A stretch of 64,000 nucleotides of DNA from Candidatus Dadabacteria bacterium (GTDB lineage Bacteria; Desulfobacterota_D; UBA1144; Nemesobacterales; CSP1-2), in the NCBI GenBank assembly GCA_040289575.1, contig PSLL01000006.1, positions 24,583 to 88,582 of the forward strand, written 5' to 3'. Positions within the stretch are counted from its first letter, which is position 1; each line of letters opens with the position of its first letter. The notes beneath the pieces were generated by a model, which worked only from the letters and a program-made list of their open reading frames with translations, was not told the DNA's origin and made no database searches. The position numbers and the translations under genes were made by a program. Below are positions 1,945-61,108 of this stretch, piece after piece.

Positions 1945-4900
1945 AATTTACTAACTGGATATATGTCCATCGTCGTTCGATCCTTTTCTTAATGGCGGTA
2001 CTGACCTTAGGTGGGCTGGCAAGCACTCTCAAACTCCCCGTAGCCCTCTTCCCCTACGTAGATTTCCCCCGTGTAGTAGTGAGCCTCGATGCCGGAGATC
2101 GTCCGGCAGAGCGCATGGTCTTTGAGGTGACCAGGCCGATTGAGGAGGCAGTGCGAGCTGTCCCCGGCGTGCGCAGTGTGCGTTCTACTACGAGTAGGGG
2201 AAGTGCCGATATATCCATTGATTTCGACTGGGGTGAAGACATGGTAGCAGCCATGTTACAGATAGAGTCTGCAATCAACCAGGTAATGCGGGGTTTACCA
2301 CAGGGAACCACATTCAATGTGAGGCGCAGCGACCCTACGGTCTTCCCGGTGCTGGCATATAGCCTAACCTCTGACACACACTCATTAGTTGAGTTGCGTG
2401 ATATTGCGCTATATCAATTGCGGCCATTGCTTTCAACTGTAAAAGGGGTAGCTAAGGTCGGAGTTTTAGGCGGCAATCAGGAAGAATATCGGGTAACCGT
2501 AGACCCGGCACGGCTAGATTCCTTCAGTCTGTCAATAGACGATGTGGCAAAGGCCCTTTCCGCCGCCAATGTTATTACCGCGGTAGGTCGTATGGAAGAC
2601 CACTATAAGCTCTACCTAGTCATATCGGATACCCAACTGCGTAACCTAGAGCAGATTCGCGAAACTATAATACATTCGGGAGAAAACGGTGTAGTGAGAT
2701 TAGATGATGTCGCTACTGTCAGCCCGGGGACAGTACCCCAGTTTACACGCGTCACCGCCGATGGCCACGATGCTGTGATCTTTCAAGTATACCAGCAACT
2801 AAACGGCAATACCGTGCAGATAGCGAATAATATAAAGAATAAGCTCAATGAATTTCGCAACCAGTTACCACTGGACATAAATATCGCCAACTGGTATGAC
2901 CAGAGTGAATTGATCATCTCCTCTGCTACCAGCGTACGCGATGCCATACTTATAGGTATTGTGCTTGCGACATTAATCCTATGGCTATTCCTGCGCAACC
3001 TAAAGGTTACACTAATTGTCATAATCTCTGTGCCTAGCGTACTGGCAGCTGCCATCTTAATGCTCTACGTGTTACACATGAGCTTCAATATCATGACTCT
3101 TGGCGGCATGGCAGCAGCCGTGGGACTTATCATTGATGATACTATAGTCATTGTAGAACACATTATTCGTAGGATACGTGGGGGTACCAATGATTACAGA
3201 GATGGGATTATGAGTGCTGCCCGAGAGTTTACTAAGCCTCTTGCTGGTTCATCCGCCTCTACTATTATCATTTTTGCACCCCTGGCATTCCTCTCCGGGG
3301 TAACCGGAGCTTTTTTCAAATCGCTCTCTCTTACTATGGCCACTAGCCTCATTACCTCCTTCCTCATTGCCTGGCTGGCCACACCGCTTCTTGCGAATTA
3401 CCTACTTAATCAGAAGGATGCCAATCAAAAAGAGGGCGGTACGCTGACAGAGCAAGTACACAAGGCCTATGAGGCTATTATGCGCCGTATACTGGAACAT
3501 CAATGGCTAGTGCTATTGGTTGTAGCACCATTGATTATTGTAGGTTGGCTGGGCTACAGGCAAGTTGGCTCCGGTTTTATACCGGCGATAGATGAGGGAG
3601 GCTTCGTCCTCGACTACCGGACGGCACCGGGAACCTCCCTCACAGAGACGGATCGTCTGCTGCGGCGTGTAGAGACAATTCTCCAAACAATCCCAGAGGT
3701 AAACACATATTCCCGACGTACAGGTCTGGCACTAGGGGGGTTTCTTACCGAAGCTAATGAAGGCGATTTCTTCGTACGTCTCAAGCCGTTTCCACGTCGA
3801 GGTATAGAGTCTGTCATGGATGATGTGCGTACACAGATAGAACGCTCGATTCCAGGATTAGATATTGAATTAGCCCAGCTAATGGAAGACCTCATCGGTG
3901 ATCTCACAGGTGTGCCCCAACCAATTGAGATCAAACTCTATTCTGACGATGGCGAACTACTGCGTAGGCTAGGGCCGCAGGTGGCTGAAGCTATAGAGAA
4001 AATCCCAGGTGTGGTGGATGTGCGCAGCAGCATTATTCTCGCTGGCGATGCTCTGGATATTAAGGTAGAAAGGGTAAAAGCAGCGATAGAGGGAGTGGAC
4101 CCTGAATCAGTCACTCACATGATTTCCGACTACTTAAGCGGTGTGGTCACCACACAGGTGCAGCGTGGCCCAAAGATGATAGGGGTACGGGTGTGGATAC
4201 CGGGCGATACACGCTCTATGGAGCGTGATCTAGAGAACCTGCGCCTGCGTGCCCCGGATAGCCACCTATTTCCTCTCAAGCGCATAGCAACTATTACTAC
4301 AATCACCGGTCAGCCACAGATAACGCGTGATGACCTCAAACAAATGGTCGCTGTTACAGGTCGCATCAGCGGGCGGGATATAGGTACAGTAGTCAGAGAT
4401 GTCAAAAACGTATTAAACCATCCTGGACTGGTGCCCAAGGGGGTGTACTACAGCCTAGGTGGGCTTTATGCACAGCAACAGATCGCATTCGCTGGACTTA
4501 CCACCGTCTTTGTTGCAGCAATAGTTCTCGTTTTCTCACTCGTGCTTTTTCTCTATGAAAGCTTCCGTGCAACATTTGCTATCATTGCTACTACACTAAT
4601 AGCCCTATCGGCAGTTTCTATCGGTCTATGGTTAACCGGCATGGAGATTAATATATTCTCCATTATGGGTATGACCATGCTTGTAGGCATTGTAACGGAG
4701 GTAGCTATCTTCTATTTTTCCGAATACAACGATTTGCCTAAAGACCTAGATAGAAATACCGCATTAATAATGGCGGGAAAGAACCGTATGCGCCCTATAG
4801 CAATGACAACACTTGCTGCCATTCTGACCCTTATGCCACTAGCTTTAAAGATTGAGCCGGGCTCCGCCATACAACAGCCATTGGCGATCGCCATTATTTC

Positions 4901-9329: not shown

Positions 9330-10100
9330 CTACGTTGTCTCCCCAAGATACGCCTCAATTACCCTTGGATTACTTCTTATATCCTCGGGGCATCCCTCTG
9401 CAATCCTCTCTCCGTAATCGAGCACGGTGATTTTATCGCATATCCCCATAACCACATGCATATCATGCTCAATGAGAAGCACGGTTAAGTCGAATTCATT
9501 CCTGATACCTTTAATGAAATCCATAAGCCCGTCCTTTTCACTTGGATTCATACCGGCGGCAGGCTCATCGAGGAGAAGAAGCTTGGGACGAGTAGCAATG
9601 GCACGGGCAATCTCCAATCTCCTCTGAAGCCCATATGGAAGGGATAGAGCCTTTTCATTTGAAAGATGTAAAAGACTAGTCTTCTCTAAGAGCGCAATGG
9701 CATTGTTATATATTTCTCTCTCCCTATTTTTGTATCCGGGAAGGCGCAGTACAGCCTGCCAAAACAAGAATGGATTAAACCTCAAATGAAACCCGATCAT
9801 TACGTTTTCCAAGACGCTCAGGTCTCTGAAGAGCTTTATATTTTGAAATGTCCTTGCAATTCCAAGGGACGTAATCCTGTGCGGCTCGAGTCTTGTAACC
9901 TCTTTTTGGAGGAATGATATAGTTCCGGCTACGGGCTTTACAAATCCGGAGATTGCATTAAATACCGTAGTTTTTCCCGCGCCGTTTGGGCCTATCATCC
10001 CTCTGATTGTTCCAGACTCAACATCCATACTAAAATCAGACACAGCCTTGAGCGCATGAAAACGGACTGTCAGATTTTCAATCCTGAGTATGTTTCCCAC
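9330..10100 (-). CDS. ABC transporter ATP-binding protein, LivG/BraF-like
   Basis: Walker A GPNGAGKTT. ~256 aa LivG-type ATPase immediately upstream of the LivF-like gene. Confidence 0.8.
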   Translation of the reverse strand: MGNILRIENLTVRFHALKAVSDFSMDVESGTIRGMIGPNGAGKTTVFNAISGFVKPVAGTISFLQKEVTRLEPHRITSLGIARTFQNIKLFRDLSVLENVMIGFHLRFNPFLFWQAVLRLPGYKNREREIYNNAIALLEKTSLLHLSNEKALSLPYGLQRRLEIARAIATRPKLLLLDEPAAGMNPSEKDGLMDFIKGIRNEFDLTVLLIEHDMHVVMGICDKITVLDYGERIAEGCPEDIRSNPRVIEAYLGETT

Positions 10101-10153
10101 TTTTTATATATCTGCCTTTTTCAAACATGAAATACATTTCAATCTATTATAAT

Positions 10154-11083
10154 TCATCCCTCATCATCAGGTACAGACGAATCATTTCTCCGATTTATAT
10201 TAACCGCAAATGGCTTGCTCCGCTCGCCGAAATAAATGCTTACATGCGGGAATGGAATTTCAATTCCCTTCTGATCAAATGTATTTTTAATTCTCCTTCT
10301 CAATTCCCTCCCTACATCCCACTGCTTGAGCGGCTGCGTCTTTATCATACACTTGATTATAACCTCAGAGCTGCCGAAGTTATCAACCCCCAGTATCTCA
10401 AGAGGCTCCAATATTGAAGGACGGAACTTTTCGTCTTTATATAGCTCTTCCCCTATCTCCTTTAACACCTGCATAACCTCATCCACATTCTCTTTATATG
10501 CCACACCGACATCAATAACATATCGCGACCAGCCCCTTGTCATATTCGACAGCGTATTTATCGTACCGTTTGGAAAGATGTGAACAGTACCCTGAAGGTC
10601 TCTTAGCACAATGGTTCTCAGATTGATTTCTTCCACAAGCCCTCCCGTTCCATTGACTACAGCAACGTCTCCTACGCGAACCTGATTCTCCATAATTATA
10701 AAGAAGCCGCTTATAATATCCCTTACGAGATTTTGTGCCCCAAATCCAATGGCAAGCCCCACTATGCCGGCACCAGCTATTATTGGCGCAATATCTATCC
10801 CGACTTCTCTAAGAACCATCATAAAGGCCAATACAAAGACGGTTACAAAAGCCGCCTTTCTCAATATGTTGCCAAGCGTCTTTACCCTTTTTTGAGTTTC
10901 CAAATTGGCAAAAAAATCTCCCGTATCTTTCATAATGACCTTCTCCGTCCTTTCAATTAGAACGGAAATCAGCTTTAGGAGCACATAAGCCCCTATGATT
11001 ATCACAACAATACGAATACCGGAGGTCCTAAGCCAGTCAATAATATTGTCAACATAAGCCGGATTAAATACCCTGGATATCAT
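10154..11083 (-). CDS. Mechanosensitive ion channel, MscS family
   Basis: Three N-terminal TM helices followed by the conserved MscS beta-domain (GAQNLVRDIISGFFIIMENQVRVGDVAVV…). Confidence 0.8.
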   Translation of the reverse strand: MISRVFNPAYVDNIIDWLRTSGIRIVVIIIGAYVLLKLISVLIERTEKVIMKDTGDFFANLETQKRVKTLGNILRKAAFVTVFVLAFMMVLREVGIDIAPIIAGAGIVGLAIGFGAQNLVRDIISGFFIIMENQVRVGDVAVVNGTGGLVEEINLRTIVLRDLQGTVHIFPNGTINTLSNMTRGWSRYVIDVGVAYKENVDEVMQVLKEIGEELYKDEKFRPSILEPLEILGVDNFGSSEVIIKCMIKTQPLKQWDVGRELRRRIKNTFDQKGIEIPFPHVSIYFGERSKPFAVNINRRNDSSVPDDEG

Positions 11084-11339
11084 GGTATTATGCTACCTCC
11101 TTTCCAAATATATTTGTAGAAATAAAATAGCCACCCTAAATTCTAGGTACCGAGGATTCGTGCGGAGATTCTACAAAATTTTAATATTTAACCTTCCCGA
11201 CAGACAAAAATTAAGTCGGATAAAACACGAGGAATTGTTACAATGATAAATGATTCACCAAGGCGGATCAAACATAACTCTGCACTTAGCGGCCTCTATT
11301 TTTGACTCCATATCTCCCATTATGTAAACTCCACTCATA

Positions 11340-13148
11340 ATGGGAAAGATTAGGATTCTTCCCGAAAATATCGTGTCTAAAATCGCAGCGGGAGAGATTG
11401 TAGAAAAGCCAGCTTCTGTTGTGAAAGAACTCGTTGAAAATTCTCTCGACGCCCAAAGCACACACATACATATAGAACTGAGGGGCGGCGGAAAAAGGTT
11501 CATAAGTGTTTTAGATAACGGCGAAGGGATGACAATGGACGACGCCCTCCTCTCTCTTGAGCGTCACGCTACAAGCAAAATAAGAGGCGCGGAGGACCTC
11601 TTTTCTATAAAAACGCTTGGATTTCGGGGAGAGGCGCTTCCGAGTATCGCAGGGATCTCCAGGTTAAAGCTCACAACAAAAACAAAGGATGCGCTTTCGG
11701 GCACAAGGATTTCCATTGAGGGCGGAGTCATAAAAAGCGTTGAAGAAATCGGCTGTCCTTCCGGAACAGCAGTTGAGGTAAGAGACCTTTTCTACAATAC
11801 GCCGCCGAGACTTAAATTCATGAAAACTAAAGAAACAGAACTCTCAAATATCCTTGACATTATTCAAAGGGAGGCTCTCCCCCGGCCGGATGTAGGATTT
11901 GAAGTCACACATGAAGGGAAAACACTGCTTCACCTCAGACAAAGAAAAGCACTGGAAGAAACGCTACCCGAGATCTTCCCCGATACAGAACTTTTTGAGA
12001 TAAAATCAGAATCCGAGGGGATTAAAATACACGGCTTTGTAGGCGGTCCCGAAGATACGAGGACTACAACGCAAAAGCTATTCACGTATGTAAATCGCCG
12101 AGCTGTAAAGGACAAGTTTCTCATCCGAATGCTCATTGACTCTTATGGAAGACTCATAGAAAGAGGTAGATTTCCGCAAGGAATTCTCCTCATAGATATT
12201 CCGCCTGAAGAGATTGATGTGAACGTCCATCCTACAAAGAATGAGGTCAGGTTTAAAAGGTCTGGAGTTGTGGGTAGCTTAATAAAAGTCGCGATATCAG
12301 ATATGTTAAACAATGCCCCCTGGATAAAGGACTACCGCGCAAGGGTTAAGAACGCGGTTCAGGGATTTTTTGAAAAAGGCAGGGCTTTTGAGGAAACCTA
12401 CCAAAACGCCCAGATACCGCCGACAACCTCATACAGAGAGACTCCTCAAGGAGAGGATATAGTTTTAAAAACCCCCGACGCAGAACCAATACAGGTAAAT
12501 AATATAAAACCATCTCCTCTATCCCCAATTCAAACACCACACTACGAACTCTTTAGGCAGGAGGGATTTTTCTCCAATCTGAATATAATCGGACAACTGG
12601 GTGAACTCTACATAATCTGCGCATCGGGAAGGGGGATGATTCTTATTGACCAACATGCAGCGCACGAGAGGATCAACTACGAAAAGTTAAAAAACGCCTA
12701 TCTAAAAAGAGAATTTGAAACCCAGGAGCTTCTCTTCCCACTTTCGATTGAGCTATCCTCCGACGAGACCCAAATCCTAGAAGAGCACAAGGAAGAAATA
12801 GAATCTCTGGGAATAAAAATTGAAGGGTTTGGGAAAGGCTCTTTTCTTATAAGGTCAGTCCCCGCACTTCTTAAAAATAGCGACGTAGAAAAGCTCTTAA
12901 AAGAAATGGTTGGAGAGATTGCCACACTGGGAAAAGAAGAGGGTCTGACCGAGCACATAGATCACATAATTGCAACTATGGCATGCCACAGTTCAGTTCT
13001 CGCAAGCCATGAACTAAATCCAGAGAAGATGAAATCCCTTCTGCAGGAACTCGACTGCACCGAATTTCCACATGCCTGCCCGCACGGAAGACCTGTGGCA
13101 AGGGAACTCACGTTTGAAGAGCTTGGGAGGATGTTTAAGAGATCCTAA
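11340..13148 (+). CDS. mutL: DNA mismatch repair protein MutL
   Basis: GHKL ATPase N-terminus (ILPENIVSKIAAGEIVEKPASVVKELVENSLDA) and MutL C-terminal dimerisation domain. Confidence 0.95.
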   Translation: MGKIRILPENIVSKIAAGEIVEKPASVVKELVENSLDAQSTHIHIELRGGGKRFISVLDNGEGMTMDDALLSLERHATSKIRGAEDLFSIKTLGFRGEALPSIAGISRLKLTTKTKDALSGTRISIEGGVIKSVEEIGCPSGTAVEVRDLFYNTPPRLKFMKTKETELSNILDIIQREALPRPDVGFEVTHEGKTLLHLRQRKALEETLPEIFPDTELFEIKSESEGIKIHGFVGGPEDTRTTTQKLFTYVNRRAVKDKFLIRMLIDSYGRLIERGRFPQGILLIDIPPEEIDVNVHPTKNEVRFKRSGVVGSLIKVAISDMLNNAPWIKDYRARVKNAVQGFFEKGRAFEETYQNAQIPPTTSYRETPQGEDIVLKTPDAEPIQVNNIKPSPLSPIQTPHYELFRQEGFFSNLNIIGQLGELYIICASGRGMILIDQHAAHERINYEKLKNAYLKREFETQELLFPLSIELSSDETQILEEHKEEIESLGIKIEGFGKGSFLIRSVPALLKNSDVEKLLKEMVGEIATLGKEEGLTEHIDHIIATMACHSSVLASHELNPEKMKSLLQELDCTEFPHACPHGRPVARELTFEELGRMFKRS

Positions 13149-13302
13149 GTAAACTCCGCCATCCCTTTATCAGAACAAAGAACGCATAGAGAACTTATTT
13201 AAAATTCTCTCTCCGTCCATCTGCGAACCCATTGGCTAAATCGGTATGGGATACACGACATTACTTGATTTATCTCATTGCCTCAGCCATAATTTCAAAT
13301 AA

Positions 13303-13491
13303 ATGCAGGTTAAATGCCCGAGATGCGGGAAGTTAGTCAAATGGGAAGGAAATAAGTGGAAGCCATTTTGTTCAGAAAGATGTAAACTGATAGATCTAGG
13401 CGCTTGGGTGGGGGAGGAGTACAAAATCCCTGAAGAGCCCGTCTCAGAAGAGAATCAAAAACAAATAAACGGCAGAAACGAAGAGGAATGA
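13303..13491 (+). CDS. yacG: DNA gyrase inhibitor YacG (zinc-ribbon protein)
   Basis: 62 aa with a C-x2-C…C-x3-C motif and YacG-like sequence (VKCPRCGK…[16 protein letters not shown]). Confidence 0.75.
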
Positions 13492-19342: not shown

Positions 19343-20392
19343 CTAAATAAACCCGTAGCGATGAGCCACACGTTCAAGCAGCTCGCTCGATGCGACGAAT
19401 GCAGTATTTACAGCCATCATAAGGGTTATACTCGCCAAAAAGCCAACTGCCAAGCTAAAGGCTGGACTACCTACAACTCCTGCATAATGCGTAATGAGGT
19501 CTTCTTCATGAGCATGAAAATCAATCGGAGATGAAAGAACGAGTGTCGAAACAAGAGGAGTAATAACCCCAACGGTGAGTGCAAGAAATATATAAGCCTT
19601 CCCAATATCGCGCCAACTCTTTACAAGTCCAGCTGTCTGTATAACAGATTCAACCCCTGAATAAGCCAAAACGGAGCTCCCTACTCCTACGGTAACAGCG
19701 TATATCGCATGAAAGATATTATGCTCGGTAAGGTCTCTATATACATCATTAAAACTCCCTTTTATTACCCCTATGCTTTCTGACGTAAGATTAAAAAAAC
19801 CAAGAGTAATAAGGTTGAGCACGATAAAGATGGCTCCTACGAATATAGAGAAAGTGAATCTCGCATTCTCCTTTATTCCGATGATATTGAGTCCAGCAAT
19901 AAACCAGATTATAGCAAACGGAAGAACAGCCCTCACAAATGGAGAGAGCGATAAGAATGTTGTTCCGTTTGCTGCGGCGCTCACAGATGAGATACAGGCC
20001 GTAAGTATGTAGTCAACCATAATAGAGGCAACGGCAATAAATGAGACTGTAGGACCTAGCACAAGGTATGAGAACGAGTAAACGCCTCCGCCTTTTATCC
20101 CATTTTTCTCGAGAATTTCTGCAATCTCAGTCATTCGAGTCGTCAAGTACCGAATGAGAACAGCAGTAAAAATAAGAAAAAATATCGCCTTATTTCCTAT
20201 GAATCTATGCGCTTCACTCGGGGCATAGAATATGGATGTAAATTCATCCATAAATGTGATGATACCAACGGAGAGCCAGGTAAGCCACCATCTGCCCCCT
20301 CTGAGGTACGAAAGGAGATTACGCACCCGAAGGAGTCTGATAAATAGAATCAGTAGAAGGAGATTAAGCCCTAAGAGGACAAGTTCTTTCAT
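19343..20392 (-). CDS. APC-superfamily-like amino acid/polyamine permease (349 aa, possibly C-terminally short)
   Basis: Multi-TM protein with a GGGVYSFSYLV-type motif typical of APC transporters. Confidence 0.55.
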   Translation of the reverse strand: MKELVLLGLNLLLLILFIRLLRVRNLLSYLRGGRWWLTWLSVGIITFMDEFTSIFYAPSEAHRFIGNKAIFFLIFTAVLIRYLTTRMTEIAEILEKNGIKGGGVYSFSYLVLGPTVSFIAVASIMVDYILTACISSVSAAANGTTFLSLSPFVRAVLPFAIIWFIAGLNIIGIKENARFTFSIFVGAIFIVLNLITLGFFNLTSESIGVIKGSFNDVYRDLTEHNIFHAIYAVTVGVGSSVLAYSGVESVIQTAGLVKSWRDIGKAYIFLALTVGVITPLVSTLVLSSPIDFHAHEEDLITHYAGVVGSPAFSLAVGFLASITLMMAVNTAFVASSELLERVAHRYGFI

Positions 20393-21277
20393 AAGGGGTT
20401 CTATCTGTAAAGCAGAGGAGTCTTATGATCCTGATGTCGGAAATCAAAGAATCAAAAAAGCTATATTTCATCTTCTCTCCCGACGCCTGCGGGGTTAGCT
20501 GACGGGCTCGGGTCTGGAGAATAACCCTACATTTATCATGATTCGCCCCAAAATCCTGGGTTCCCCGCTTTCCCACTTTCCGGGAAATTCGGCGAAGACT
20601 TAGGGCATCTAGTTTAATTCATTTAATCCCTTCGGTCAATCTCTTTATTAGAATCCGGCGGAATTGGCGTCATATTAAGAGGATTCATATTAAAAATTTG
20701 GGTACATTGCAATGTCAATAAGAGCCTTCTTAGAAAGTCACATAAGTAATTGCCTTAAAAAATCTACTACTTTCCTTGCAATGGACTCATTTCTCACCAC
20801 AACCACTATTATCTTGAGCGCAAGAACTAGGAGTAGGCACATAACTATTAAGCTCAAAACATCTATAAGCTCATCCCTCATTATACACCCCCCCTAGGGC
20901 ACAAACGTCAGTGCAGTCCTCTATTGCTTAGATGGTAAAAAGGGTTCAATTACTTGGGGTTCTATCTATATCTTCCCGTTTTCTTCTCCGCCTCGTATAG
21001 AGATCGCCCAAATTTTCATACCCTTTTTACAATAACCCGGTCGCCAACTTGCATCCTTTTGATCCTATTACCTATCGCTTCAACCTTGAAGACCCAAGAC
21101 AATGAAGAAAGCTATTATTCTTTTCATTATTTTCTTACCTCTTTTCCCGGAGAATCAAATAGATTTGGGAATTCCCCGATGTCATTTTGAAGGAGGAAGA
21201 GACTATTCAGGGAACCCCTCATGGAGCGAAATAAATACTCGTCTAAAGCCGTATCACATATCCAACCGACCCGGAAT

Positions 21278-31051: not shown

Positions 31052-31400
31052 ATGAGCGAACGCCCTTGTCCTCTAATTGATTTTAAACACGTCTCTGTTA
31101 GTCGTGGAAACAGAACCGTTCTACACGATATAAGTCTCAAGATTTAAACAGGCAAGCACGTCGCCATCTTAGGACCAAACGGCTGCGGCAAAACCACGTT
31201 GATTAAAACCATTATGCGTGAGTGTTACCCAATAGTAAAGGACGGCTCATCTCTAACCATCCTAGGTCAGGAGCAGTGGAATATATTTGAGCTAAGATCA
31301 ACGCTGGGTATTGGGTCTAATGACCTGATGATTGACTACATCGGTGAATTCAGCGGGAGGGAGGTCGTTATTAAAGAAGCTTGCGTAATATATGTCGAAA
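31052..31400 (+). pseudogene. Remnant of an ABC transporter ATP-binding protein (ModF-half-like): in-frame TAA 31 codons in, then truncated after ~115 codons
   Basis: ATG at 31052, then …DISLKI-TAA(31145-31147)-TGKHVAILGPNGCGKTTLIKT… (Walker A) continues in the same frame. Homology ends near 31385, before the AT-rich leader of the SDR gene. Confidence 0.6.
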
Positions 31401-37424: not shown

Positions 37425-37500
37425 TGGAGCGGGCGACGGGATTCGAACCCGCGACCCCAAGCTTGGGAAGCTTGTACTCTACCAACTGAGTTACGCCCGC
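37425..37500 (-). tRNA. tRNA-Gly(CCC): tRNA-Gly (anticodon CCC)
   Basis: The minus-strand 76-nt sequence GCGGGCGTAACTCAGTTGGTAGAGTACAAGCTTCCCAAGCTTGGGGTCGCGGGTTCGAATCCCGTCGCCCGCTCCA folds as a canonical cloverleaf with a CTTCCCAAG anticodon loop and an encoded CCA. Confidence 0.9.
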
Positions 37501-48787: not shown

Positions 48788-50417
48788 TTAGTAGACAACC
48801 TTAAATATATCCATATCCTTAATTACCCAATTATCAACCGGTCTACTCTTAAAAGACATTATCAAAATGAAGTGTTTAGACCATTCATTATTATAAACCT
48901 CATACAAGTAAGAACGCCTTTTTATATTCTCTGTGTCCAACATCAAGTAACTGATTTGCATTTTTTTAAAATCTTGAATCGCACCCTCTAAGTTATTATA
49001 AATACCGGGTCTAAAGGTAGCCACACCCAATTGCTTGGATGATAAATTTAATAGATTTTTACTACCGATTTTGGAGTCTGTAAGGATCATTTCAATCAAA
49101 TCGCCGCCCTCAACAATCGCTATGTTCCCGTGCAGGTTGCTTGCCGCCCAGATTGCCCAACTATCCCGAACCTTAGGAGTCGCAATGCTTGTACCATTCG
49201 CAATACTCAGATGAATACTCAGTGGGATACGCACAAAAAGTAATAGAATAAATAGCAAAACTAAAATATTATTTCTATTGCCCTCTCTGAGAAGATCAAT
49301 CAAGAATTTCGATGAAATAACAAAAGTAAAGGGTAGCAGTACGTACAAATATCTTGGATTGCCATAAACCTCAAATACAGGGATAAAACCTGCAACGAAA
49401 ACAAAGAAAAGAATAAAAATTAGATCGAATCTTGAAAACCTCTCTAAAATAAGATACTTAATGCCGCCAAGGAAAAATAAGGCCAACCAAACCTCCCCCA
49501 GTAGTAATATAGAATTGATTCGCTACTTTGAACAAACCGTGATAGATAAATTTTCTAAAATAGTCATCAATCTTATGTGTTCTTAAGTAATTAATAAAAG
49601 ATGGGTTAAGGGTACCTTTCAGCGATGCTTGTGTATTGAAGTCTGCAAAGTATTGTGAATTCTTGCCAAAATCAAAAGCGGATCCATATGACTTATATCT
49701 CATATACAGGTCGGGCAGTGACACTAAAAAGAACAGAAATGGCACTAACAGTAGAAATGACCGGCTTAAGTTTGCCTTCTTATACCACAGTAACCACACT
49801 AGATACAGAAGGACAACACCCAGCATAAATATGCCATTGGGCCTCACATAATTTGAAAAACCAGCCAAGATGGTGGCAATGACAATTCTGTGCGATTTGT
49901 TTGCGGAATCCGCCAAATAATACACCGTTGATATAACCAATAAGATAAAGAGCGGTTCACTGTATCCCGAGTATTCCAAGCCGCCTGTACGTATCAATAT
50001 TGGAGAGAGTGCAAAGGCAAAAACAGCAACTATAGAAGATTTTTTATCAGTTAATTTATTAGCAAGGCCAGAAAAAGGGAAAATAGATAAACCCATAATC
50101 AAAATAGACAAAACTCTTGAAAGAATCATTCCATCAAAAATTGATCGGATACCGAATACCTTGAGAAAGGCGGCTAGCACTATTGACCAGCCAATTGAAT
50201 GGCTGTGCATAGGAATCCAATTTCCCTGTGCTATTTCAAAACCCTTTATTAGATAATAATACGCATCTTCCCGCAACACATCATTAAACGGTGTAGAAAA
50301 GGTCATTAATGTGACCATTAAGAGAAAACAAGAGGTTGTAAACCATATATATTTCGAGTATAAGTAGGGAAATGCAATATCTAATTTATTGTTTATATAG
50401 TTAATAGCATCTATCAC
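48788..50417 (-). pseudogene. GT39/GT83-like (ArnT/PMT_2-type) polyprenyl-phosphate-sugar-dependent membrane glycosyltransferase, split by a frameshift near 49460-49490
   Basis: The N-terminal 319-aa ORF carries the PMT_2/ArnT first-loop motif (REDAYYY…). A 232-aa ORF in another frame continues the multi-TM protein. The ORFs overlap at 49458..49486 next to a CCCCC run. Confidence 0.6.
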
Positions 50418-50511: not shown

Positions 50512-51543
50512 TCATTTCCTCCCTTTAACCGTACCACTACTCTTCTTTTTTGATATGAGAAAACCCCAGAAGAAGCCTATTTTATTGGAGATTTCAAATA
50601 AGAACATAAAAGGGAGATATAGTAAGAACTCTCCTACCGAACTAGACTGTCGTGCTCTCCAAAAAGCACTGAGTAATGTACCCGACTTTCCCATAATTCC
50701 CCATAGTATCAACCGAAACGAGCCTACAGAACCGTTCGAGTACTTCTTGTGATAACTCCAACCGTTGCGGCCAGTATCAAAGCACTTACTAACTGTATCA
50801 AGAACGCTCCTTCGACCGTACCGATGCCTGATCCGATGGTAGGGATAATAGTAAACCGGTATGCCTTCGGCACGTAGGCGCCTAGTCATGTCTGTATCCT
50901 CTGCTCTAAGTAGCGATTCATCGAAAAGCCCTACCTTCTGGAAGACTTCCCTCTTGAACGCAGCCCCTCCCGCTGCCTCTAGGTCGTGTTGTGTTGTTAT
51001 TTTTTCTTCTATAACCGACAGCCTTCGCCATCTTCTCTTCAATTTTTCTAACCAGTGTTCATCTAAAATTTCTTCACAAGATAGGCGCCTTCTAACACTA
51101 ACATCAAAGTAGAAATGGCTAACCCTGCTAAAGAAATCTTCCTCGGCTGCAATGATCTTGAATCGCACCACCATTGCACGGGGATTCTCCTGAAAAAACC
51201 TAATTATGGTTTCGGCATAATCAGGAGCCATTATGTAATCGTCAGCCACAATTGCAATTATGCCCCCGGAAGCATTGACAATGCCCGTGTTTCTCGTCGC
51301 CGGGATTCCCTTATGAGTTTGCCGACAGTACTTCAATCCCGGGTGACTCAGTGATATGCTCTCCATCATGCCCTCTGTACCATCTGTTGATCCATCATCT
51401 ACAACTATTATCTCTAGATTTTCCCTCGGTACAGTCTGAGAAAATAATGAATCCAAGCAACCACGGAGCATATCTTTGCGATTATAGGTCAAGACGATAA
51501 TGGATAGCACTCCAGGTTTTCCTCTGGTCATATTCAAATCCAC
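50512..51543 (-). CDS. Glycosyltransferase family 2 with a C-terminal hydrophobic segment (DPM1/GtrB-like polyprenyl-phosphate glycosyltransferase candidate)
   Basis: GT2 N-terminus (LSIIVLTYNRKDMLRGCLDSLFSQTV…EIIVVDDGSTDGT). Confidence 0.75.
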   Translation of the reverse strand: MDLNMTRGKPGVLSIIVLTYNRKDMLRGCLDSLFSQTVPRENLEIIVVDDGSTDGTEGMMESISLSHPGLKYCRQTHKGIPATRNTGIVNASGGIIAIVADDYIMAPDYAETIIRFFQENPRAMVVRFKIIAAEEDFFSRVSHFYFDVSVRRRLSCEEILDEHWLEKLKRRWRRLSVIEEKITTQHDLEAAGGAAFKREVFQKVGLFDESLLRAEDTDMTRRLRAEGIPVYYYPYHRIRHRYGRRSVLDTVSKCFDTGRNGWSYHKKYSNGSVGSFRLILWGIMGKSGTLLSAFWRARQSSSVGEFLLYLPFMFLFEISNKIGFFWGFLISKKKSSGTVKGRK

Positions 51544-51615: not shown

Positions 51616-52479
51616 TTAAAGGAGATTTCTCATCTTTATCATATCTCTCAGTTTCCAGTATTTCATGCTCAATCGCCAACTGAATCCGAGCAATATCGCC
51701 AAGAAATGAGAGTGCTGCCTTATATCAACTTTGTGCTTTTTCTCGTCCGCAATAATAAATTCCTCACCGTATTTCCTTCTTATGTAATACTCACCCTTGG
51801 TATACCAAACCCTCTGTTTTATTAAACCCACCAGCGAATCTCTACAATCCAGATAGGCGATAATATCGTCTGATTTATACAAATCGATTCCATTTTCCTG
51901 CAAACGGAGATAAAGGTCATAGTCCTCTCTCGATGGGAGTGATTCATCGAATAGCGGATTTATCATCCTTAAGAGTGTTCTCTTAATTGAAAAATTGCCC
52001 GACGACAGTCTGTTTACTCGATAGAGCCTACTGTCTTTCTTATTAAAAACTGCATCGTAGTTATAGAACCAGAAGTTGGAGTAGAAATCGTCCCTTAGCC
52101 TCTTAAGGTTCCCATTGAGCACCATTACCTCGGGATGCTCTTTGTGGACTCGAATTGTCTCAAGAATATAGTTTCGTTCGACTATGCAATCATCATCCAG
52201 GAATATTATAATGTCGCCGGTGCTTTGACTTAGGCCGTAGTTTCTTGCAAAGCTTGGACCTCTATTTCTATCTAACGAGTAGAGTCTGAGAAAAGAATAT
52301 TTTTTATCCAATAGATAGTTCATTTGTTTATCTGCCACACAATCACTATGGTCGTCTACAATGAGTACTTCTAAATTTATTTCTAATCCGTGTTCCCTGA
52401 TCTGTGGAATCAAGGAATTTAATAGATTGGCTAGCTTATTAAATCTGTTATACGTGGGAATAATGATTGAAACCTTCAT
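51616..52479 (-). CDS. Glycosyltransferase family 2
   Basis: GT2 N-terminus (VSIIIPTYNRFNKLANLL…LIVDDHSDC…FLDDDC). Confidence 0.8.
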   Translation of the reverse strand: MKVSIIIPTYNRFNKLANLLNSLIPQIREHGLEINLEVLIVDDHSDCVADKQMNYLLDKKYSFLRLYSLDRNRGPSFARNYGLSQSTGDIIIFLDDDCIVERNYILETIRVHKEHPEVMVLNGNLKRLRDDFYSNFWFYNYDAVFNKKDSRLYRVNRLSSGNFSIKRTLLRMINPLFDESLPSREDYDLYLRLQENGIDLYKSDDIIAYLDCRDSLVGLIKQRVWYTKGEYYIRRKYGEEFIIADEKKHKVDIRQHSHFLAILLGFSWRLSMKYWKLRDMIKMRNLL

Positions 52480-54272
52480 GGTCTTGTTATCTTAACAATC
52501 GCTTCCTCGGGCAGTGCATAAATCCATGTAAGCCCCCGGCGCAAAAGGAATGGGCGTCCAAATAGGTCGTGGAATTGGATCGGATCACTACCGTGAATTC
52601 TGTACCAGGTTGCCCCCTCTGATCTGGGGCCACACCAAATCTGGGCTGGGCCCTCTCCATATGTATCAATTCGCAGCCGTCCCTGAATGTCGCCGGGGAT
52701 GTTGGTCACACGTACCCAAATTAGAACCAGGTTGGCAATCAAGAGATTGGGATCACCCGTTGCATCCTCACCCACCGGCGTATTGAGAACCGTCCGTCGG
52801 AATCCCCCGGCCAAACCGTCCCACTCGAATCGTTCTGGATAGGGAGCACGGGGACGCGAATGGACCTCAATCCGTACTCGCGCCGTTCCCTCGTCATCCC
52901 GAATTGCCTCATCTCGGAAAATAGTAGAGAGTCCCGGACAGTAATGCGCAATTAGATTAATACCTGCTGCTGTTGATTGCTCTAGACCTATAGGGGAAAT
53001 TATGGTCAGTTTATCCAATTGCCCAAAGATACGCTCGGGAACAATAAAGATATTATGCGGAGGAGTCCGCCCGTCTTCTGTCGCAAGAATCTGTGCATTC
53101 TGAAGAACCTCAGGCTCACCAGATGCACCTATATGATAACGGTATTCAATATCAATCACGCGCTCCAGATGCTCGAGAAGAGTCCGTGATTCGGGGCTTC
53201 CACCGCAGTGGACATAGAAAGGCTGATAGGCTCCGGCCCACTCGATAAAATATGGCCGGGCGCTCCGTACCGGTCCCACTCTGTCACTGAAAATCCGGGT
53301 GAAGACAGGCATAAGACGCGTCAATCCACCTTCAACTGGAGCCTCGATGATAAGGGATGCACCAGCCAATCCCAGCTGTGGATGTGAACGGCTAGAGTTG
53401 TCAACCATCACCGCAGGCAAGCCGCACCAGAGGTCAATTCTATTTTTATCACCATCAGATGCATTGCTTCTTACTACCATTGGAAAAGACGCCACGCGAG
53501 TTTCAGGAAGTATCCAGTCAAATGCGGCACTGAAGGCATAAGTCTCAGGCAGTCGGCGATCGGCAAGCCGGTGATATTCCATAAGTAACAGATACAATGG
53601 CCTGTATAAGAATCGTGACCTCAGCACCAGTCGGCATAAGAGCAGATAGAGACTCAAGATTCGGGATCGATGTCCCAGTTCATTATTGAACATCCACAGC
53701 GCCGTCACCGGCTGAAGGAGGCTGCTCTTGTTGACTGTAATCGTCTCGTTCTCAACGAATCCCTCATGCTGAAGGAGGAATTTCGTGTACCGGAGCGAGC
53801 GAAGACCATAATATCCCACGGCGTCTATGTGATGACGAGTATATTCTTCTGGAAAGCACTTTGCCCAACGAATAATGGGTTTCGATGAATCCAGGTCTAC
53901 AAAGAAAATCAAACGCCCGCCCGGACGAAGCACACGTTTAATCTCGCGCAATGCGGCGACGAATTGCCTCTCAGTTAGGTGCTCGAACATCCAAATACTC
54001 ACCACCGCATCCACTGAACGATCTGATAAAGGCAGCCGCTCGACCTGTGAACGAATGACCCGATTGTATATTGATGCGGCGCTCTGAAGCGCCCCGGCGC
54101 CATAATCCACTCCCGTTACACGTCCAAATTCTGTCAGAAATTCCCAGCCGCCACCGCAACCCAAGTCAACGATCTCTAATGGATAACGACCAAGCCGTGC
54201 CAGCATCGGTCGCAAAAGATGGGTATGCCCCAGTGGATATTCCGCCGGAGCAACCACCCCAACGGTCCCCAA
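52476..54272 (-). CDS. Class I SAM-dependent methyltransferase fused to a ~400-aa C-terminal domain of unknown function (possibly DUF3048-like); GC-rich compositional outlier
   Basis: Motif I VDLGCGGGW and post-I LRPGGRLIFFVDL. The C-terminal domain contains GGLTRLMPVFT…GPVRSARPYFIEWAGAY. Local GC is visibly higher (~55%) than the flanks (~35-40%). Confidence 0.7.
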   Translation of the reverse strand: MGTVGVVAPAEYPLGHTHLLRPMLARLGRYPLEIVDLGCGGGWEFLTEFGRVTGVDYGAGALQSAASIYNRVIRSQVERLPLSDRSVDAVVSIWMFEHLTERQFVAALREIKRVLRPGGRLIFFVDLDSSKPIIRWAKCFPEEYTRHHIDAVGYYGLRSLRYTKFLLQHEGFVENETITVNKSSLLQPVTALWMFNNELGHRSRILSLYLLLCRLVLRSRFLYRPLYLLLMEYHRLADRRLPETYAFSAAFDWILPETRVASFPMVVRSNASDGDKNRIDLWCGLPAVMVDNSSRSHPQLGLAGASLIIEAPVEGGLTRLMPVFTRIFSDRVGPVRSARPYFIEWAGAYQPFYVHCGGSPESRTLLEHLERVIDIEYRYHIGASGEPEVLQNAQILATEDGRTPPHNIFIVPERIFGQLDKLTIISPIGLEQSTAAGINLIAHYCPGLSTIFRDEAIRDDEGTARVRIEVHSRPRAPYPERFEWDGLAGGFRRTVLNTPVGEDATGDPNLLIANLVLIWVRVTNIPGDIQGRLRIDTYGEGPAQIWCGPRSEGATWYRIHGSDPIQFHDLFGRPFLLRRGLTWIYALPEEAIVKITRP

Positions 54273-54502
54273 CCACGCTGCTCTCGGTACGACGTTGTCC
54301 AGCGGCTATCATGCGGAATATCACCCTCGACGAATCTGGCAATACCGTCTTCCACCAGCCAGGGACCGTGACCCGCTGTGCACACTAAAGTTCCCCGACC
54401 GTTTTTTACATCACACTGAAGGGCAATGTGACAATCGGGGCAGATCAGATCATCGGATCGGAAGGACATAAGGTTGTGAACCCTATCATATAGAACATTC
54501 AT
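54176..54502 (-). CDS. Trm112-like zinc-ribbon ORF overlapping the annotated start of the methyltransferase (possibly its frameshifted N-terminal domain)
   Basis: LICPDCHIALQ…LVCTAGHGPWLVEDGIARFVEG matches the Trm112/YcaR CPxC…C…(aromatic)x[IV]xDGI[PA]x[FLM][LV] pattern. The 3' half of the ORF overlaps the MTase ORF in another frame. Confidence 0.45.
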   Translation of the reverse strand: MNVLYDRVHNLMSFRSDDLICPDCHIALQCDVKNGRGTLVCTAGHGPWLVEDGIARFVEGDIPHDSRWTTSYREQRGWGPLGWLLRRNIHWGIPIFCDRCWHGLVVIH

Positions 54503-54511
54503 AAAATATTC

Positions 54512-55426
54512 TCATGAATCTCTATGTCGAATCTCTAAATTCGGCATCCCCCAGCACTCATACCCCATATCATGAGCCATCATACCTAAACCCTCTGTTT
54601 CTATCTCTCCAATATAAATTCCTTTCAAAATATGTAGGATCTCTCTTCGTGCTTCTAGTATATTTCCTTTTCTTATTCCTCTTAGAGCACTTAGTACCGC
54701 TCTCCTTATTATGGCTCTTTTTGGTTCAAGGTAATGGTTTCCCCTTATAAGTGGATTTTTTCTACCATACAAGAACGGAGGGAAAATCAACCCGTCTCTA
54801 TGAATATCCGCTTTTATTAAAAGCATGGTCCCACCCACAGCATGTAATTTTACTAGATCACTCTCATTTCTTAGGTCATGCATGTGTAATTTCCCTTTAT
54901 CCCTCCAGGCATTCAGATCGAAGCTCATACAGCCGTATTGCGTTAAGCAATACGGCTGTATGATGTCTTTTCCGGTTGCTAAAAGTTTTTCTATAATATC
55001 AGGAGGATACTCAATGACATCAACATCTATCCACAGGACCCAATCCTCATCATCAAGTGCATGAAAAAGGAGATGGTTTCGACTCCTTGCAAGTATAGTT
55101 CTTCTCTCTATTTGGATGTGTCCGGCCCATCGGGGTGTGCCCGGCGGTATATGAAACCCAAAATCCCTTTTCCACAGCCTAGCAGACCGGAACTCTTTTC
55201 TTAGCCCCGAAAGTGATTTTTCCAATTCAAGATAGGTGTTGTCTACGCTATCGCCTTCCAAGAATCCGAGGGAGATCAAGTTATGTGGGTAGGTTAATTT
55301 ATAGAGGGACTGAAAATAGGTTTCTAAAAACGCTTCGGCATCTTTAACCGGAGTTAATATAAGAACCTTGTCCCTATATTCCATAGCCACCCACCCTCCT
55401 CTATTTTCATGATAGGAAGTAATCAA
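54512..55426 (-). CDS. GT62-like glycosyltransferase (Anp1/Mnn9/Van1 family alpha-1,6-mannosyltransferase homolog)
   Basis: Several blocks match the fungal mannan-polymerase family: KVLILTPVKDAE…LTYPHNLISLGFL; DWVLWIDVDVIEYPPDII; HAVGGTMLLIKADIHRDGLIFPPF; ETEGLGMMAHDMGYECWGMPN. Confidence 0.65.
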   Translation of the reverse strand: MITSYHENRGGWVAMEYRDKVLILTPVKDAEAFLETYFQSLYKLTYPHNLISLGFLEGDSVDNTYLELEKSLSGLRKEFRSARLWKRDFGFHIPPGTPRWAGHIQIERRTILARSRNHLLFHALDDEDWVLWIDVDVIEYPPDIIEKLLATGKDIIQPYCLTQYGCMSFDLNAWRDKGKLHMHDLRNESDLVKLHAVGGTMLLIKADIHRDGLIFPPFLYGRKNPLIRGNHYLEPKRAIIRRAVLSALRGIRKGNILEARREILHILKGIYIGEIETEGLGMMAHDMGYECWGMPNLEIRHRDS

Positions 55427-55640: not shown

Positions 55641-57030
55641 TTAAAATATCGGCTTGCTGATCTCCTCTGGGAATAAGCCTGGACTGGATTTGTTTGTATG
55701 ATCTCCTAATATGTATATGTAATCGTTGTTTTTAGTGTGTTCCTTTATCCATAGACCTAGCTGTTTATATCGCCCATATTCATCGTCGACACCTTTAATA
55801 TTTATACTATAAAACCTGTAAAGGGTTTGGTATGGTGCCCACAATATTGCTATTATGACTATAGTCTGGACGATGTATCTTCGCCTCTCTGTTTCTCCAA
55901 TTAAGTTAGCTTGAAATAACACATTGATTGCTATTCCAGAGGCGAGCGCTATCGACGGTAGAATTTGTTTGAATTGATGTCCCAAATAATATCCAGATGC
56001 ATTTACACCTAGAAAATCCAAGCCGATCCAGAAAACAATGCCTCCAAATGGTATCTTATTATCTATTATCCTTTTTTCTGGACAATAAATAGTAAGATCA
56101 ATGGATAGAATAAAACTATTTTAGAATGTCCCCAAGCATCAATAAACTTCCCAATCCTTATTTTATAATCGGCACTGCCCCCTTCCTTCTGCATTAAAAT
56201 TAACCATGCATCCTTGAAGTAATCAATCATAGTAACGCCACTTGCCAAAAGAGGAATTAAACTGAGACACATAGGAAACACAACAGCTGCGAATAAGAGA
56301 AATGAATCTCTAAAAGTACTTTTATAGGTTAAGGAACGTTTATCACCTAAGCCTAATAAAAATGCAAATAGTGCAATAGCACTAAGTATTGCAGTTTGCT
56401 TAAAAGCAATTGCGATTCCCATAAAGAATCCAGCAATTAAGGTGTCTCTAATATATAATAAAAGGCTTCTTGCTTCCTGGGCCTTTAAAAGAAATAAGAA
56501 AGCGAGAGTTGAAAATAAAACCATGAATGATTCAGTCTGTGCGGTATATGCTCCATCCATCAGCCTTCAAATCATGCTGAAGCCAAAGAGAATCATAGTG
56601 AGGACACCAACTAAATGATTGCATAATTTTCGTCCAATTATATAAAGTAAAATTGAAGTCGTAACAATAGATAAGCTAGCCAGAATTCTCGGAAACCAAA
56701 TATTTAGATCGAATAGAAGATTGGAAATGACAAATACTATATAGATGCCCGGAGTCTTATTCTCAATGGCTCCGATGTATAGAGGAATCCCATACTTAAT
56801 CCATAGAAAAGCAATATAATTCCACATCCCCTCGTCATTGCCCATGTATTCACTGAAAGATGCAATTAGAAGCAGGGAAAAATAATTATTGCTACTATAA
56901 TAGGACTGGTCACAACCCTATAAAGACTATTATATAAACCCATCTTATTCATACTTTTCGGTCTCAAAAAATAATCTCTTGTCAAGACCAATTCTTTCTC
57001 CAAATGACTATTTACATGGAAAGAAAGCAT
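55641..57030 (-). pseudogene. Second GT39/GT83-like (ArnT/PMT_2-type) membrane glycosyltransferase, broken by two frameshifts and an in-frame TGA
   Basis: Consecutive minus-strand pieces: 56863..57030 (first TM helix), 56567..56845 (DEGMWNY…ENKTPGIY loop motif), 56066..56560 and 55641..56021. A TGA at 56567-56569 separates two pieces in the same frame. Confidence 0.6.
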
Positions 57031-60353: not shown

Positions 60354-61108
60354 GAAAATCTGCGGGTTCCGATTACGTGTAAATGAATATCCTCACCATG
60401 CAACCTCACTTCCGACAATATATCTATTATATTTTCTAATCTCTTCTCACCAGAAATCCTCCCAATGCATACAAAACCATTCTCTCTCTCCTGCCAGGGC
60501 ACATCTGGGAAGAGACCGGGAACTGGAGGATATACAGTTGTCGTCTCAATTCCATAAGATTCTCTGCACTTGATTCCGGTCCAGTCCGAATTTACCAGGG
60601 TGAGGTTCTCTTTCATTCTTTCAAACGAATAACCCGAAATCGCCATCCATGGCCGGTACTGACCACGCACTATACCCCATAGGCATTGATACCAAGGAAG
60701 ATCAACGAACTGCTGGCATATAGGCTCGAATCGAGGAAACCAGGGGTAGTGAACATATTGGATTCCCCTGCAGCCGAGGTCAGCCTCCCCGTTGGCGGTG
60801 ATAATAACATCGTAATCGCCATTCATCTTCTTGCACAGGCGCATGAGAAAGGCAAACTTTTGTGCGCTGTGGGGGTCGGGGTCAAGCTCTATTAAACCGC
60901 GTATGAGCCGGGGAGTATAATAGACCTTGAAATCAGATGAGCTGAGAGATGTTCCAAAGAACCGGTTGATCGCGGCAACACTAACGGGTGCCCAAGTCAG
61001 AACAGAAACCGAGTTTTCTCGTTTCAGAGCTTCAATCATCCATACTGCCACAGCATTTCCACCGCCCAGTGGCTCAAGGCTGGGCTGCACAAGTAAGACC
61101 TTTTTCAT
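60350..61108 (-). pseudogene. N-terminal two-thirds of a GT4 glycosyltransferase (paralog of 62150..63331) lacking the C-terminal catalytic half
   Basis: ~60% identical over 250 aa to the N-terminal domain of the 393-aa GT4 at 62150..63331 (…NLTLVNSDWTG…TTVYPP.P..FPDVPW.ERENGFVCIGR…HLH.IGT). It then terminates where the full copy continues for ~140 aa. Confidence 0.65.

Follow-up and report, generated by a model that had tools for sequence, protein, structure and literature searches.

How should two open reading frames (ORFs) that overlap out of frame inside a glycan cluster of a Dadabacteria genome be read: as two neighbouring genes, or as the remains of one? The question is raised by a 64,000-nt stretch of contig PSLL01000006.1 of Candidatus Dadabacteria bacterium (assembly GCA_040289575.1, positions 24,583 to 88,582), referred to here as the window; all coordinates are positions within it. 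A 108-aa ORF encoding a putative zinc ribbon and a 598-aa ORF encoding a class I S-adenosylmethionine (SAM) methyltransferase followed by DUF3048 overlap there by 97 nt in different frames; these ORFs and the genes of their two glycosyltransferase partners, GT2a and GT2b, all lie on the minus strand. The initial annotation, which had placed both ORFs and their out-of-frame overlap correctly, offered two explanations, a ribbon-methyltransferase fusion broken by a 1-nt indel or a pair of translationally coupled partner genes. Our analysis indicates that the two ORFs are very probably one gene, with an intact form of 686 aa, that has been inactivated in this Dadabacteria population. The features on which this reading turns are as follows.

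52476-54502, minus strand: disrupted gene, 2027 nt; pseudogene of a 686-aa zinc ribbon, class I SAM methyltransferase and DUF3048 protein
54176-54502, minus strand: 108-aa ORF, ATG start
52476-54272, minus strand: 598-aa ORF, TTG start
54221-54223, minus strand: frameshift site at codon 94, CCC in the window and CCCC in intact relatives (ATA CCC CAT CTT TTG = I P H L L)
54176-54220, minus strand: out-of-frame tail of the 108-aa ORF, IFCDRCWHGLVVIH followed by a stop, recognised by three-frame translation against the relative P0001; not real protein sequence
54222-54272, minus strand: out-of-frame head of the 598-aa ORF, MGTVGVVAPAEYPLGHT; the ribbon-to-methyltransferase linker in the wrong frame

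A protein search retrieved about a dozen relatives of 668-690 aa, the best of which, P0001, has 686 aa and is 97% identical. P0001 matches the 108-aa ORF without a difference through NIHWGIP and then continues with HLLRPMLARLG, which corresponds to the frame of the 598-aa ORF. It is encoded on contig L001 (Logan SRR13254584), which is syntenic with the window and 99.8-99.95% identical to it. Loss of one C from the run of four at codon 94 shifts the frame and so produces the two overlapping ORFs; wrong-frame sequence makes up the final 14 codons of the 108-aa ORF and the initial 17 of the 598-aa ORF. The lengths balance, since 2061 nt less this nucleotide and a 33-nt deletion described below gives 2027 nt, exactly the span 52476-54502. 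The split point falls within a conserved stretch, between HWGIP and HLLRPML, and the ribbon is fused in frame to the methyltransferase in all 11 aligned relatives that possess a ribbon. The intact P0001, the DNA alignment to L001 and the fused relatives thus bear out the idea of a fusion broken by a 1-nt indel. Inspection of 54230-54340 for the indel had been suggested; it is real, but its site lies 7 nt beyond that range.

The frameshift is not the only damage. Base-level alignment to L001 revealed five lesions in the window allele, the 1-nt and 33-nt deletions and three substitutions, most of which had gone unnoticed before.

53811-53813, minus strand: H231Y (CAT to TAT), an invariant family position in VGH[YH]GLRS
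53413-53414, minus strand: junction of the 33-nt in-frame deletion; VDEENRGRRPV lost, including R372 and V374 of the DUF3048 motif RRPVAVMxDN
53167, minus strand: P457L in the DUF3048 N-terminal domain, an invariant proline
52570, minus strand: R656H in the DUF3048 C-terminal domain

A family alignment of 13 sequences shows no variation at H231, P457, R372 and V374, and the three substitutions are all non-synonymous and all transitions. The core motifs of DUF3048 are no longer intact in the window copy, which keeps GPVRSARPYF and has lost RRPV to the 33-nt deletion. The methyltransferase of this copy is predicted to be catalytically incompetent, its ribbon having been cut off by the frameshift at codon 94 and its invariant H231 being a tyrosine. 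Most differences from L001 and from L090 across the window, read from the intact strain towards the window sequence, are C to T and G to A or T; these window-wide substitutions share no evident sequence motif.

The frameshift allele was also found outside this assembly. Two contigs of JGI metagenome 3300003453, L100 and L095, match the window at 100% identity. L100 (2956 bp) contains the C3 frameshift allele together with the A6 frameshift of the neighbouring PMT_2 gene, so that the allele is reproduced in a separate assembly, though perhaps from reads shared with the metagenome-assembled genome (MAG). L095 (7792 bp shown) carries P457L, R656H, the GT2 substitutions and the +A frameshift of a 542-aa gene, and ENA contig L096 has the same GT2 alleles as the window. 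L095 starts 7 nt from the junction of the 33-nt deletion, which suggests that it breaks where an assembly graph would split if both alleles coexist in the sample. L092, a further contig from that metagenome, disagrees with the window at two positions, so that the JGI contigs are not just the assembly of the MAG over again. The frame is disrupted relative to L001, L097, L098 and all fused relatives. Since the frameshift recurs base for base in L100, it is probably a real allele, and we hold it to be highly likely that the frameshifted gene is a genuine pseudogene.

The distribution of differences from the intact strain is uneven as well. Within the 10.9-kb glycan cluster lie 5 of 7 indels and 10 of 19 substitutions (both enriched, P = 0.02), and the zinc-ribbon-methyltransferase-DUF3048 gene alone holds 5 of 26 events (P = 0.01). 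The ratio of non-synonymous to synonymous substitutions is 9:1 inside the cluster and 3:6 outside.

One could argue that the gene is intact in the organism and that the missing homopolymer base is a consensus error of the MAG. The source sequence is indeed a MAG, the C-run is a short homopolymer, comparison with sister assemblies reveals further small frameshifting indels in the window, and no exact copy of the 108-, 598- or 576-aa product was found in the protein collection. Two further points tell against our reading: the JGI contigs may share the sample with the MAG, which makes a systematic error of one read set conceivable, and disruption is not peculiar to this locus, because frameshifting deletions of 10 and 11 nt are also present outside the glycan cluster. 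An error of this kind would, however, have to explain why the C3 and PMT_2 A6 alleles occur together in a separately assembled contig that is identical over 2956 bp, why the substitutions of the haplotype are found again in L095 and L096, and why the allele has in addition cleanly lost 33 nt and changed at two invariant residues. The clustering of lesions and the contrast between 9:1 and 3:6 are likewise unlike uniform error, and we consider an artefact improbable. Two metagenome contig scans with the frameshift site gave no match in the first case and two unrelated chance matches in the second.

Disruptions of the same gene at other sites are seen in other strains. L099 (SRR29483437) equals L001 over 6.5 kb except that a run of five G is shortened to four at codon 577 of the methyltransferase-DUF3048 gene (position 3304 of L099, 11729 of L001), truncating the product at 587 aa; the gene of L098 (SRR29483436) is intact. 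In L002 (~85% DNA identity, positions 9989-13467), the break in the fusion gene is at a third site, after LEHPERV, and leaves 480 and 244 aa; both partners are broken too, GT2a by a 482-bp internal deletion that leaves 132 aa and GT2b by a split into 160 and 122 aa. The s54, s92 and PMT_2 genes are missing from the L002 locus. The record of L002 is labelled 'Spirochaetia', and its OFOR-beta shares a 90% cluster with the Dadabacteria protein of the window.

What the intact gene encodes can be seen from its parts, listed here from the amino terminus.

54323-54469, minus strand: predicted zinc ribbon of Trm112/YcaR (UPF0434) type, residues about 12-60; invariant C21, C24 (CPDC), C41 and H45
53499-54221, minus strand: class I SAM methyltransferase domain; motif I VDLGCGGGW at 54144-54170, helical insertion ahead of the last strand
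53010-53414, minus strand: DUF3048 N-terminal domain (PF11258), E 3.1e-29; start truncated by the 33-nt deletion
52521-52835, minus strand: DUF3048 C-terminal domain (PF17479), E 1.3e-7

The matches to Methyltransf_11 and to the N- and C-terminal DUF3048 families are all above Pfam cut-offs. For the methyltransferase, the Methyltransf_11 match (PF08241, E 7.7e-18, 65 bits against a cut-off of 21.2) agrees with the class I assignment first made from the motif VDLGCGGGW, and the domain has a Rossmann-like methyltransferase fold; an AlphaFold2 model was built on an intact relative (pLDDT 84.6, pTM 0.82). The secondary-structure string places two long hydrophobic helices at residues about 281-315, between the last two methyltransferase strands, which may form a substrate lid rather than a membrane span.

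The predicted metal ligands of the ribbon, C21, C24, C41 and H45, are invariant in 16-17 sequences, and the ribbon is modelled as four beta-strands with pLDDT 91-93. A ribbon profile (A5, 16 sequences) matched the solved UPF0434/YcaR proteins 2js4 (E 3.7e-7), 2hf1 (3.1e-6), 2kpi (9.7e-5) and 2pk7 (1.8e-3), entries that we take to be members of PF03966. The 108-aa ORF, alone or as a conceptual fusion, had zero matches to a ribbon family in Pfam or NCBIfam even at E <= 10, and Pfam Trm112p matches among the relatives were weak (3 of 13, best E 0.0022). The data support a Trm112/YcaR-like ribbon at the profile level only. The Trm112/YcaR assignment of the initial annotation therefore stands as a profile match to solved UPF0434 proteins and falls short of a Trm112 hidden Markov model match to the 108-aa ORF, the lack of which had been named beforehand as counting against it. 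The likeness to Trm112/YcaR (PF03966) and to complexes such as 6F5Z lies in a profile alignment to solved UPF0434 proteins that runs end to end, in the common pattern CPxC...LxC...P.xDGIP and in the association with a class I methyltransferase. Trm112, however, is a separate subunit, whereas the ribbon of the 686-aa protein is fused in cis, and its third and fourth ligands are spaced C-x3-H (C41, H45). RlmA(I) (PDB 1P91) has the same order of parts, an N-terminal zinc-binding domain followed by a class I methyltransferase, and its Foldseek alignment (345-349 columns) is longer than those of other methyltransferases; it differs in being an rRNA methyltransferase of 15% identity, with another gene context and without DUF3048.

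The guess that the C-terminal domain is DUF3048-like proved right, both halves (PF11258 and PF17479) being matched in 13 of 13 relatives. The C-terminal 330 residues adopt a beta-rich YerB fold and find only YerB among fold matches; the solved structure that shares this fold is Bacillus subtilis YerB (PDB 2PSB; PF11258 and PF17479). An N-terminal segment for export or anchoring is present in YerB and in 28 of 31 stand-alone relatives, whereas in the 686-aa fusion DUF3048 stands behind a presumably cytoplasmic methyltransferase and has none. A hydrophobic 19-aa window was accordingly detected in 28 of 31 stand-alone DUF3048 proteins and in 1 of 18 fusion or methyltransferase proteins, and the absence of an N-terminal hydrophobic segment from the fusion proteins speaks against an extracytoplasmic location of their DUF3048/YerB part. 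The window copy departs from the YerB family further in lacking the RRPVAV motif. The DUF3048/YerB family has no known function (PMC13068155), and literature searches on DUF3048 and YerB found passing mentions only and no function. Dockerin, TPR or PEGA domains accompany DUF3048 in other long proteins of the family.

The gene does not stand alone. It belongs to a conserved, co-inherited three-gene module, made of the ribbon-methyltransferase with or without DUF3048, GT2a and GT2b, which is found in glycan clusters with varying exporters. The two partners in the window are as follows.

51616-52479, minus strand: GT2a, 287 aa, Pfam GT2; its start overlaps the stop of the methyltransferase-DUF3048 gene
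50512-51543, minus strand: GT2b, 339-343 aa, Pfam GT2

The nearest solved relative of GT2a is PglI, with TarS and TarP also close, and those of GT2b are chondroitin and heparosan synthases. GT2a and GT2b each have orthologs, at 46-67% identity, that adjoin the ribbon-methyltransferase in five further loci (L002, L082/83, L084/85, L087 and L089) and that are found in none of 79 stand-alone DUF3048 loci; among relatives at 42-68% identity, their identities drop in step with that of the methyltransferase. Because the methyltransferase of L087 keeps the GT2 pair without having DUF3048, the latter is an optional add-on. An AsnB-like amidotransferase accompanies the module in the branch of 42-52% identity (L084/85, L087 and L089), joined in L084/85 and L087 by a fused ABC_membrane/ABC_tran exporter, which suggests a self-contained cassette of about five genes there. 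The exporters are Wzm/Wzt in the clade of the window, in agreement with the glycan-cluster setting recognised from the start; L082 has a flippase of Wzx type instead, and L084 and L087 have the fused ABC exporters. A relative of the ribbon-methyltransferase half, P0124 (701 aa), is fused to a GT4 glycosyltransferase (Glyco_transf_4 and Glycos_transf_1).

Immediately upstream of the methyltransferase-DUF3048 gene, at 54512-55384, lies the gene of an Anp1-family protein (PF03452, E 2.3e-53), which is kept in L001 and L002 and absent from the more distant module loci. The Anp1 family is best known for the fungal Golgi mannan polymerase subunits. A literature search on Dadabacteria and glycosyltransferase found nothing relevant.

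Which reaction could such a protein catalyse? The intact enzyme would be cytoplasmic, because it has no signal peptide or membrane segment. Its substrate would be a sugar, which it may O-methylate either in the glycan built by GT2a and GT2b or in a lipid-linked intermediate of that glycan. Within the enzyme, the ribbon would serve as a Trm112-like activator in cis or as a substrate-recognition element, and DUF3048, being absent from some members of the module, as an optional substrate-binding or positioning module. In the strain of the window, the methylation step of the module would have been lost within a wider decay of the surface-glycan cluster. Besides the gene context, the link to glycans draws on the GT4 fusion of P0124 and on the nearest solved methyltransferases: the best-ranked by Foldseek are the sugar O-methyltransferases AtmM and RebM (E about 1e-8), both of which are also among the phmmer matches. 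AtmM and RebM (PDB 6UV6 and 3BUS) are class I enzymes of Methyltransf_11 type that act on a glycosyl moiety; they differ from the present protein, to which they are 19-20% identical, in using natural-product glycosides as substrates and in having neither a zinc ribbon nor DUF3048.

Several observations pull the other way. Sugar O-methyltransferases resemble the domain only weakly (15-20% identity), and methyltransferases of lipids and small molecules score alike. In addition, L086 has the fusion with no GT2 genes nearby. Taken as a whole, the model of a cytoplasmic glycan O-methyltransferase with a ribbon in cis and an accessory DUF3048 could, judging from the sequences, turn out right or wrong about equally well.

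The initial annotation had proposed another role, that of a WbdD-like chain-length terminator which caps the non-reducing end of the O-polysaccharide for Wzm/Wzt. The methyltransferase does stand in a cluster with Wzm and Wzt in this clade, and end-capping by methylation is known from WbdD of E. coli O8/O9a. Like WbdD in that ABC-transporter pathway, it is a SAM methyltransferase of a Wzm/Wzt glycan cluster, and it could in principle modify the polymer. WbdD, however, has a C-terminal coiled-coil ruler or membrane-anchoring region and a Wzt partner with a carbohydrate-binding domain, both of which are lacking here: the C-terminus is predicted to have the YerB fold, and the Wzt of the window (267 aa) consists of ABC_tran (PF00005) only, with no cap-binding carbohydrate module. 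The module also occurs with the flippase of L082 and with the fused ABC_membrane exporters of L084 and L087. WbdD chains were found neither among 35 PDB sequence matches (E <= 1) nor among the top 50-60 fold matches. We see little chance that the protein is a WbdD-like terminator; glycan methylation as such is plausible.

The gene also stands out in base composition. GC content reaches 0.518 over 52476-54502, whereas the 2-kb flanks have 0.412 and 0.379 and the window averages 0.436; the gene ranks highest in GC among the 52 ORFs of the window (z = 2.5). The excess reported earlier (~55% against ~35-40%) is therefore real, the composition not being uniform, though the measured value is somewhat lower. 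GC content at third codon positions (GC3) is ordinary (0.487, z = 1.0), the excess being located at first (GC1, 0.613) and second (GC2, 0.452) positions, and the gene has the highest fraction of GARP and the lowest fraction of FYMINK amino acids in the window. The GC excess is an effect of amino-acid composition.

These values bear on the proposal that the gene alone was recently transferred from a GC-richer donor and now lies nested in an AT-rich island. Its top rank in GC and in GARP fraction among the 52 ORFs would fit such a transfer, as would the occurrence of some relatives in genomes of about 70% GC (L086). Against it, the GC content of the gene is about 0.50-0.52 even in hosts whose flanks have 0.43-0.51, and the syntenic GT2 partners diverge in step with the gene, the pair being co-inherited down to 42% identity. 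The named relatives, moreover, all belong to Thermodesulfobacteriota, the phylum of which Dadabacteria is a class. A separate acquisition nested in the island is unsupported because GC3 is ordinary, the GT2 partners are co-inherited and the named relatives are all from this phylum, and we regard a recent transfer of the gene alone as quite unlikely. An ancient transfer of the gene is possible.

Could the homopolymer act as a switch that turns glycan methylation on and off, whether by programmed frameshifting or by phase variation? Phase variation is a classic property of surface-glycan genes, and three lesions of the cluster in near-identical strains are homopolymer contractions (C4 to C3 at codon 94, A7 to A6 in PMT_2 and G5 to G4 in L099). 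The allele is, however, also irreversibly damaged by the 33-nt deletion and the changes at invariant residues, and the lesions of L002 are larger deletions. Classical phase variation was judged unlikely because the tracts are only 4-5 nt, C4 and G5 being far shorter than the usual contingency tracts. Programmed frameshifting was rejected: no slippery heptamer of the form X XXY YYZ was seen at the frameshift site, the relatives are in intact frame, and the further lesions are irreversible. Altogether a switch of either kind is very unlikely. Weakest of all is the reading of the locus as two functional genes, a stand-alone Trm112-like activator of 108 aa coupled in translation to a methyltransferase-DUF3048 protein of 598 aa, which we find barely tenable: Trm112 proteins do work in trans on methyltransferases (6f5z is among the fold matches) and relatives without the ribbon occur (P0014 and P0007), but the ribbon shares one frame with the methyltransferase in every aligned relative that has it, the split cuts a conserved motif and leaves 14 and 17 codons of wrong-frame sequence at the ORF ends, and the downstream 598-aa part is damaged too.

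The gene at 52476-54502 is thus an ordinary pseudogene of a rare, uncharacterised enzyme of a glycan module. An exhaustive search of 1.84 billion representatives gave 21 matches at E <= 1e-30, and few 50%-identity clusters contain all three parts, whereas ribbon-methyltransferases on their own (about 305-350 aa) and DUF3048 proteins on their own both occur widely. Among GTDB species representatives, a genome contig scan, which did not return the window's own genome, found the full-length fusion in L002 only. Database names for the architecture are generic ('DUF3048 domain-containing protein', 'SAM-dependent methyltransferase'). Annotators should join the two ORFs into a single gene marked as a pseudogene rather than enter them as a Trm112-like protein and a methyltransferase. 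In kind the finding is unsurprising, pseudogenes and variable glycan clusters being commonplace. The context of a GT2 pair nonetheless offers a first contextual clue, pointing to glycan biosynthesis, for DUF3048/YerB, a widespread family with an isolated solved fold, and the differing loss-of-function lesions in near-identical environmental strains amount to a small natural experiment on the dispensability of a surface-glycan modification.

A bolder proposal would join the two aspects: DUF3048/YerB may recognise, on whichever side of the membrane it is placed, either a glycan or an intermediate linked to polyprenyl-(pyro)phosphate, and the repeated, independent knock-outs in natural Dadabacteria populations may stem from selection for losing or varying a methylated surface glycan. 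We advance this combination as a tentative idea that is rather unlikely to hold in full. If it were true, DUF3048 would have a cytoplasmic site of action in this case and an extracellular one in Firmicutes, Actinobacteria and bacteria of the candidate phyla radiation (CPR), the fusion would be a 'Rosetta stone' for an orphan-fold family, and the knock-outs that affect the gene and the GT2 genes beside it (in the window haplotype, L099 and L002) could serve, for example, phage escape.

Other changes were noted elsewhere in the window. A gene of a PMT_2-family GT-C protein (306 aa in L001) at 55641-56560 is split into ORFs of 164 and 126 aa by the A7 to A6 contraction near 56071-56077. The gene of a 542-aa PMT_2-like membrane protein at 48788-50417 is divided into ORFs of 319 and 232 aa by a 1-nt insertion at 49508 (TATTTAC to TATATTAC). 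A 2426-bp deletion relative to L001 (positions 1698-4123 of that contig), with its junction at 60364-60378 and CC microhomology, takes away the 3' end of a GT1 gene, a sulfotransferase gene, a Glyco_trans_1_2 gene and the 5' end of a second sulfotransferase gene. In an efflux operon, compared with L090/L091, a 10-nt deletion at 23408 splits an MFS transporter gene, and an 11-nt deletion at 24229 shifts the frame of the C-terminus of an RND pump. At 31145, a C to T change relative to L090/L091 creates the stop Q32* in a 153-aa ABC_tran fragment, and JGI contig L092 has the allele of the window. The window also contains a cyclic di-AMP riboswitch (RF00379, 98 bits) at 20468-20604 on the minus strand, upstream of a gene at 19343-20392, and a tRNA at 37428-37500.

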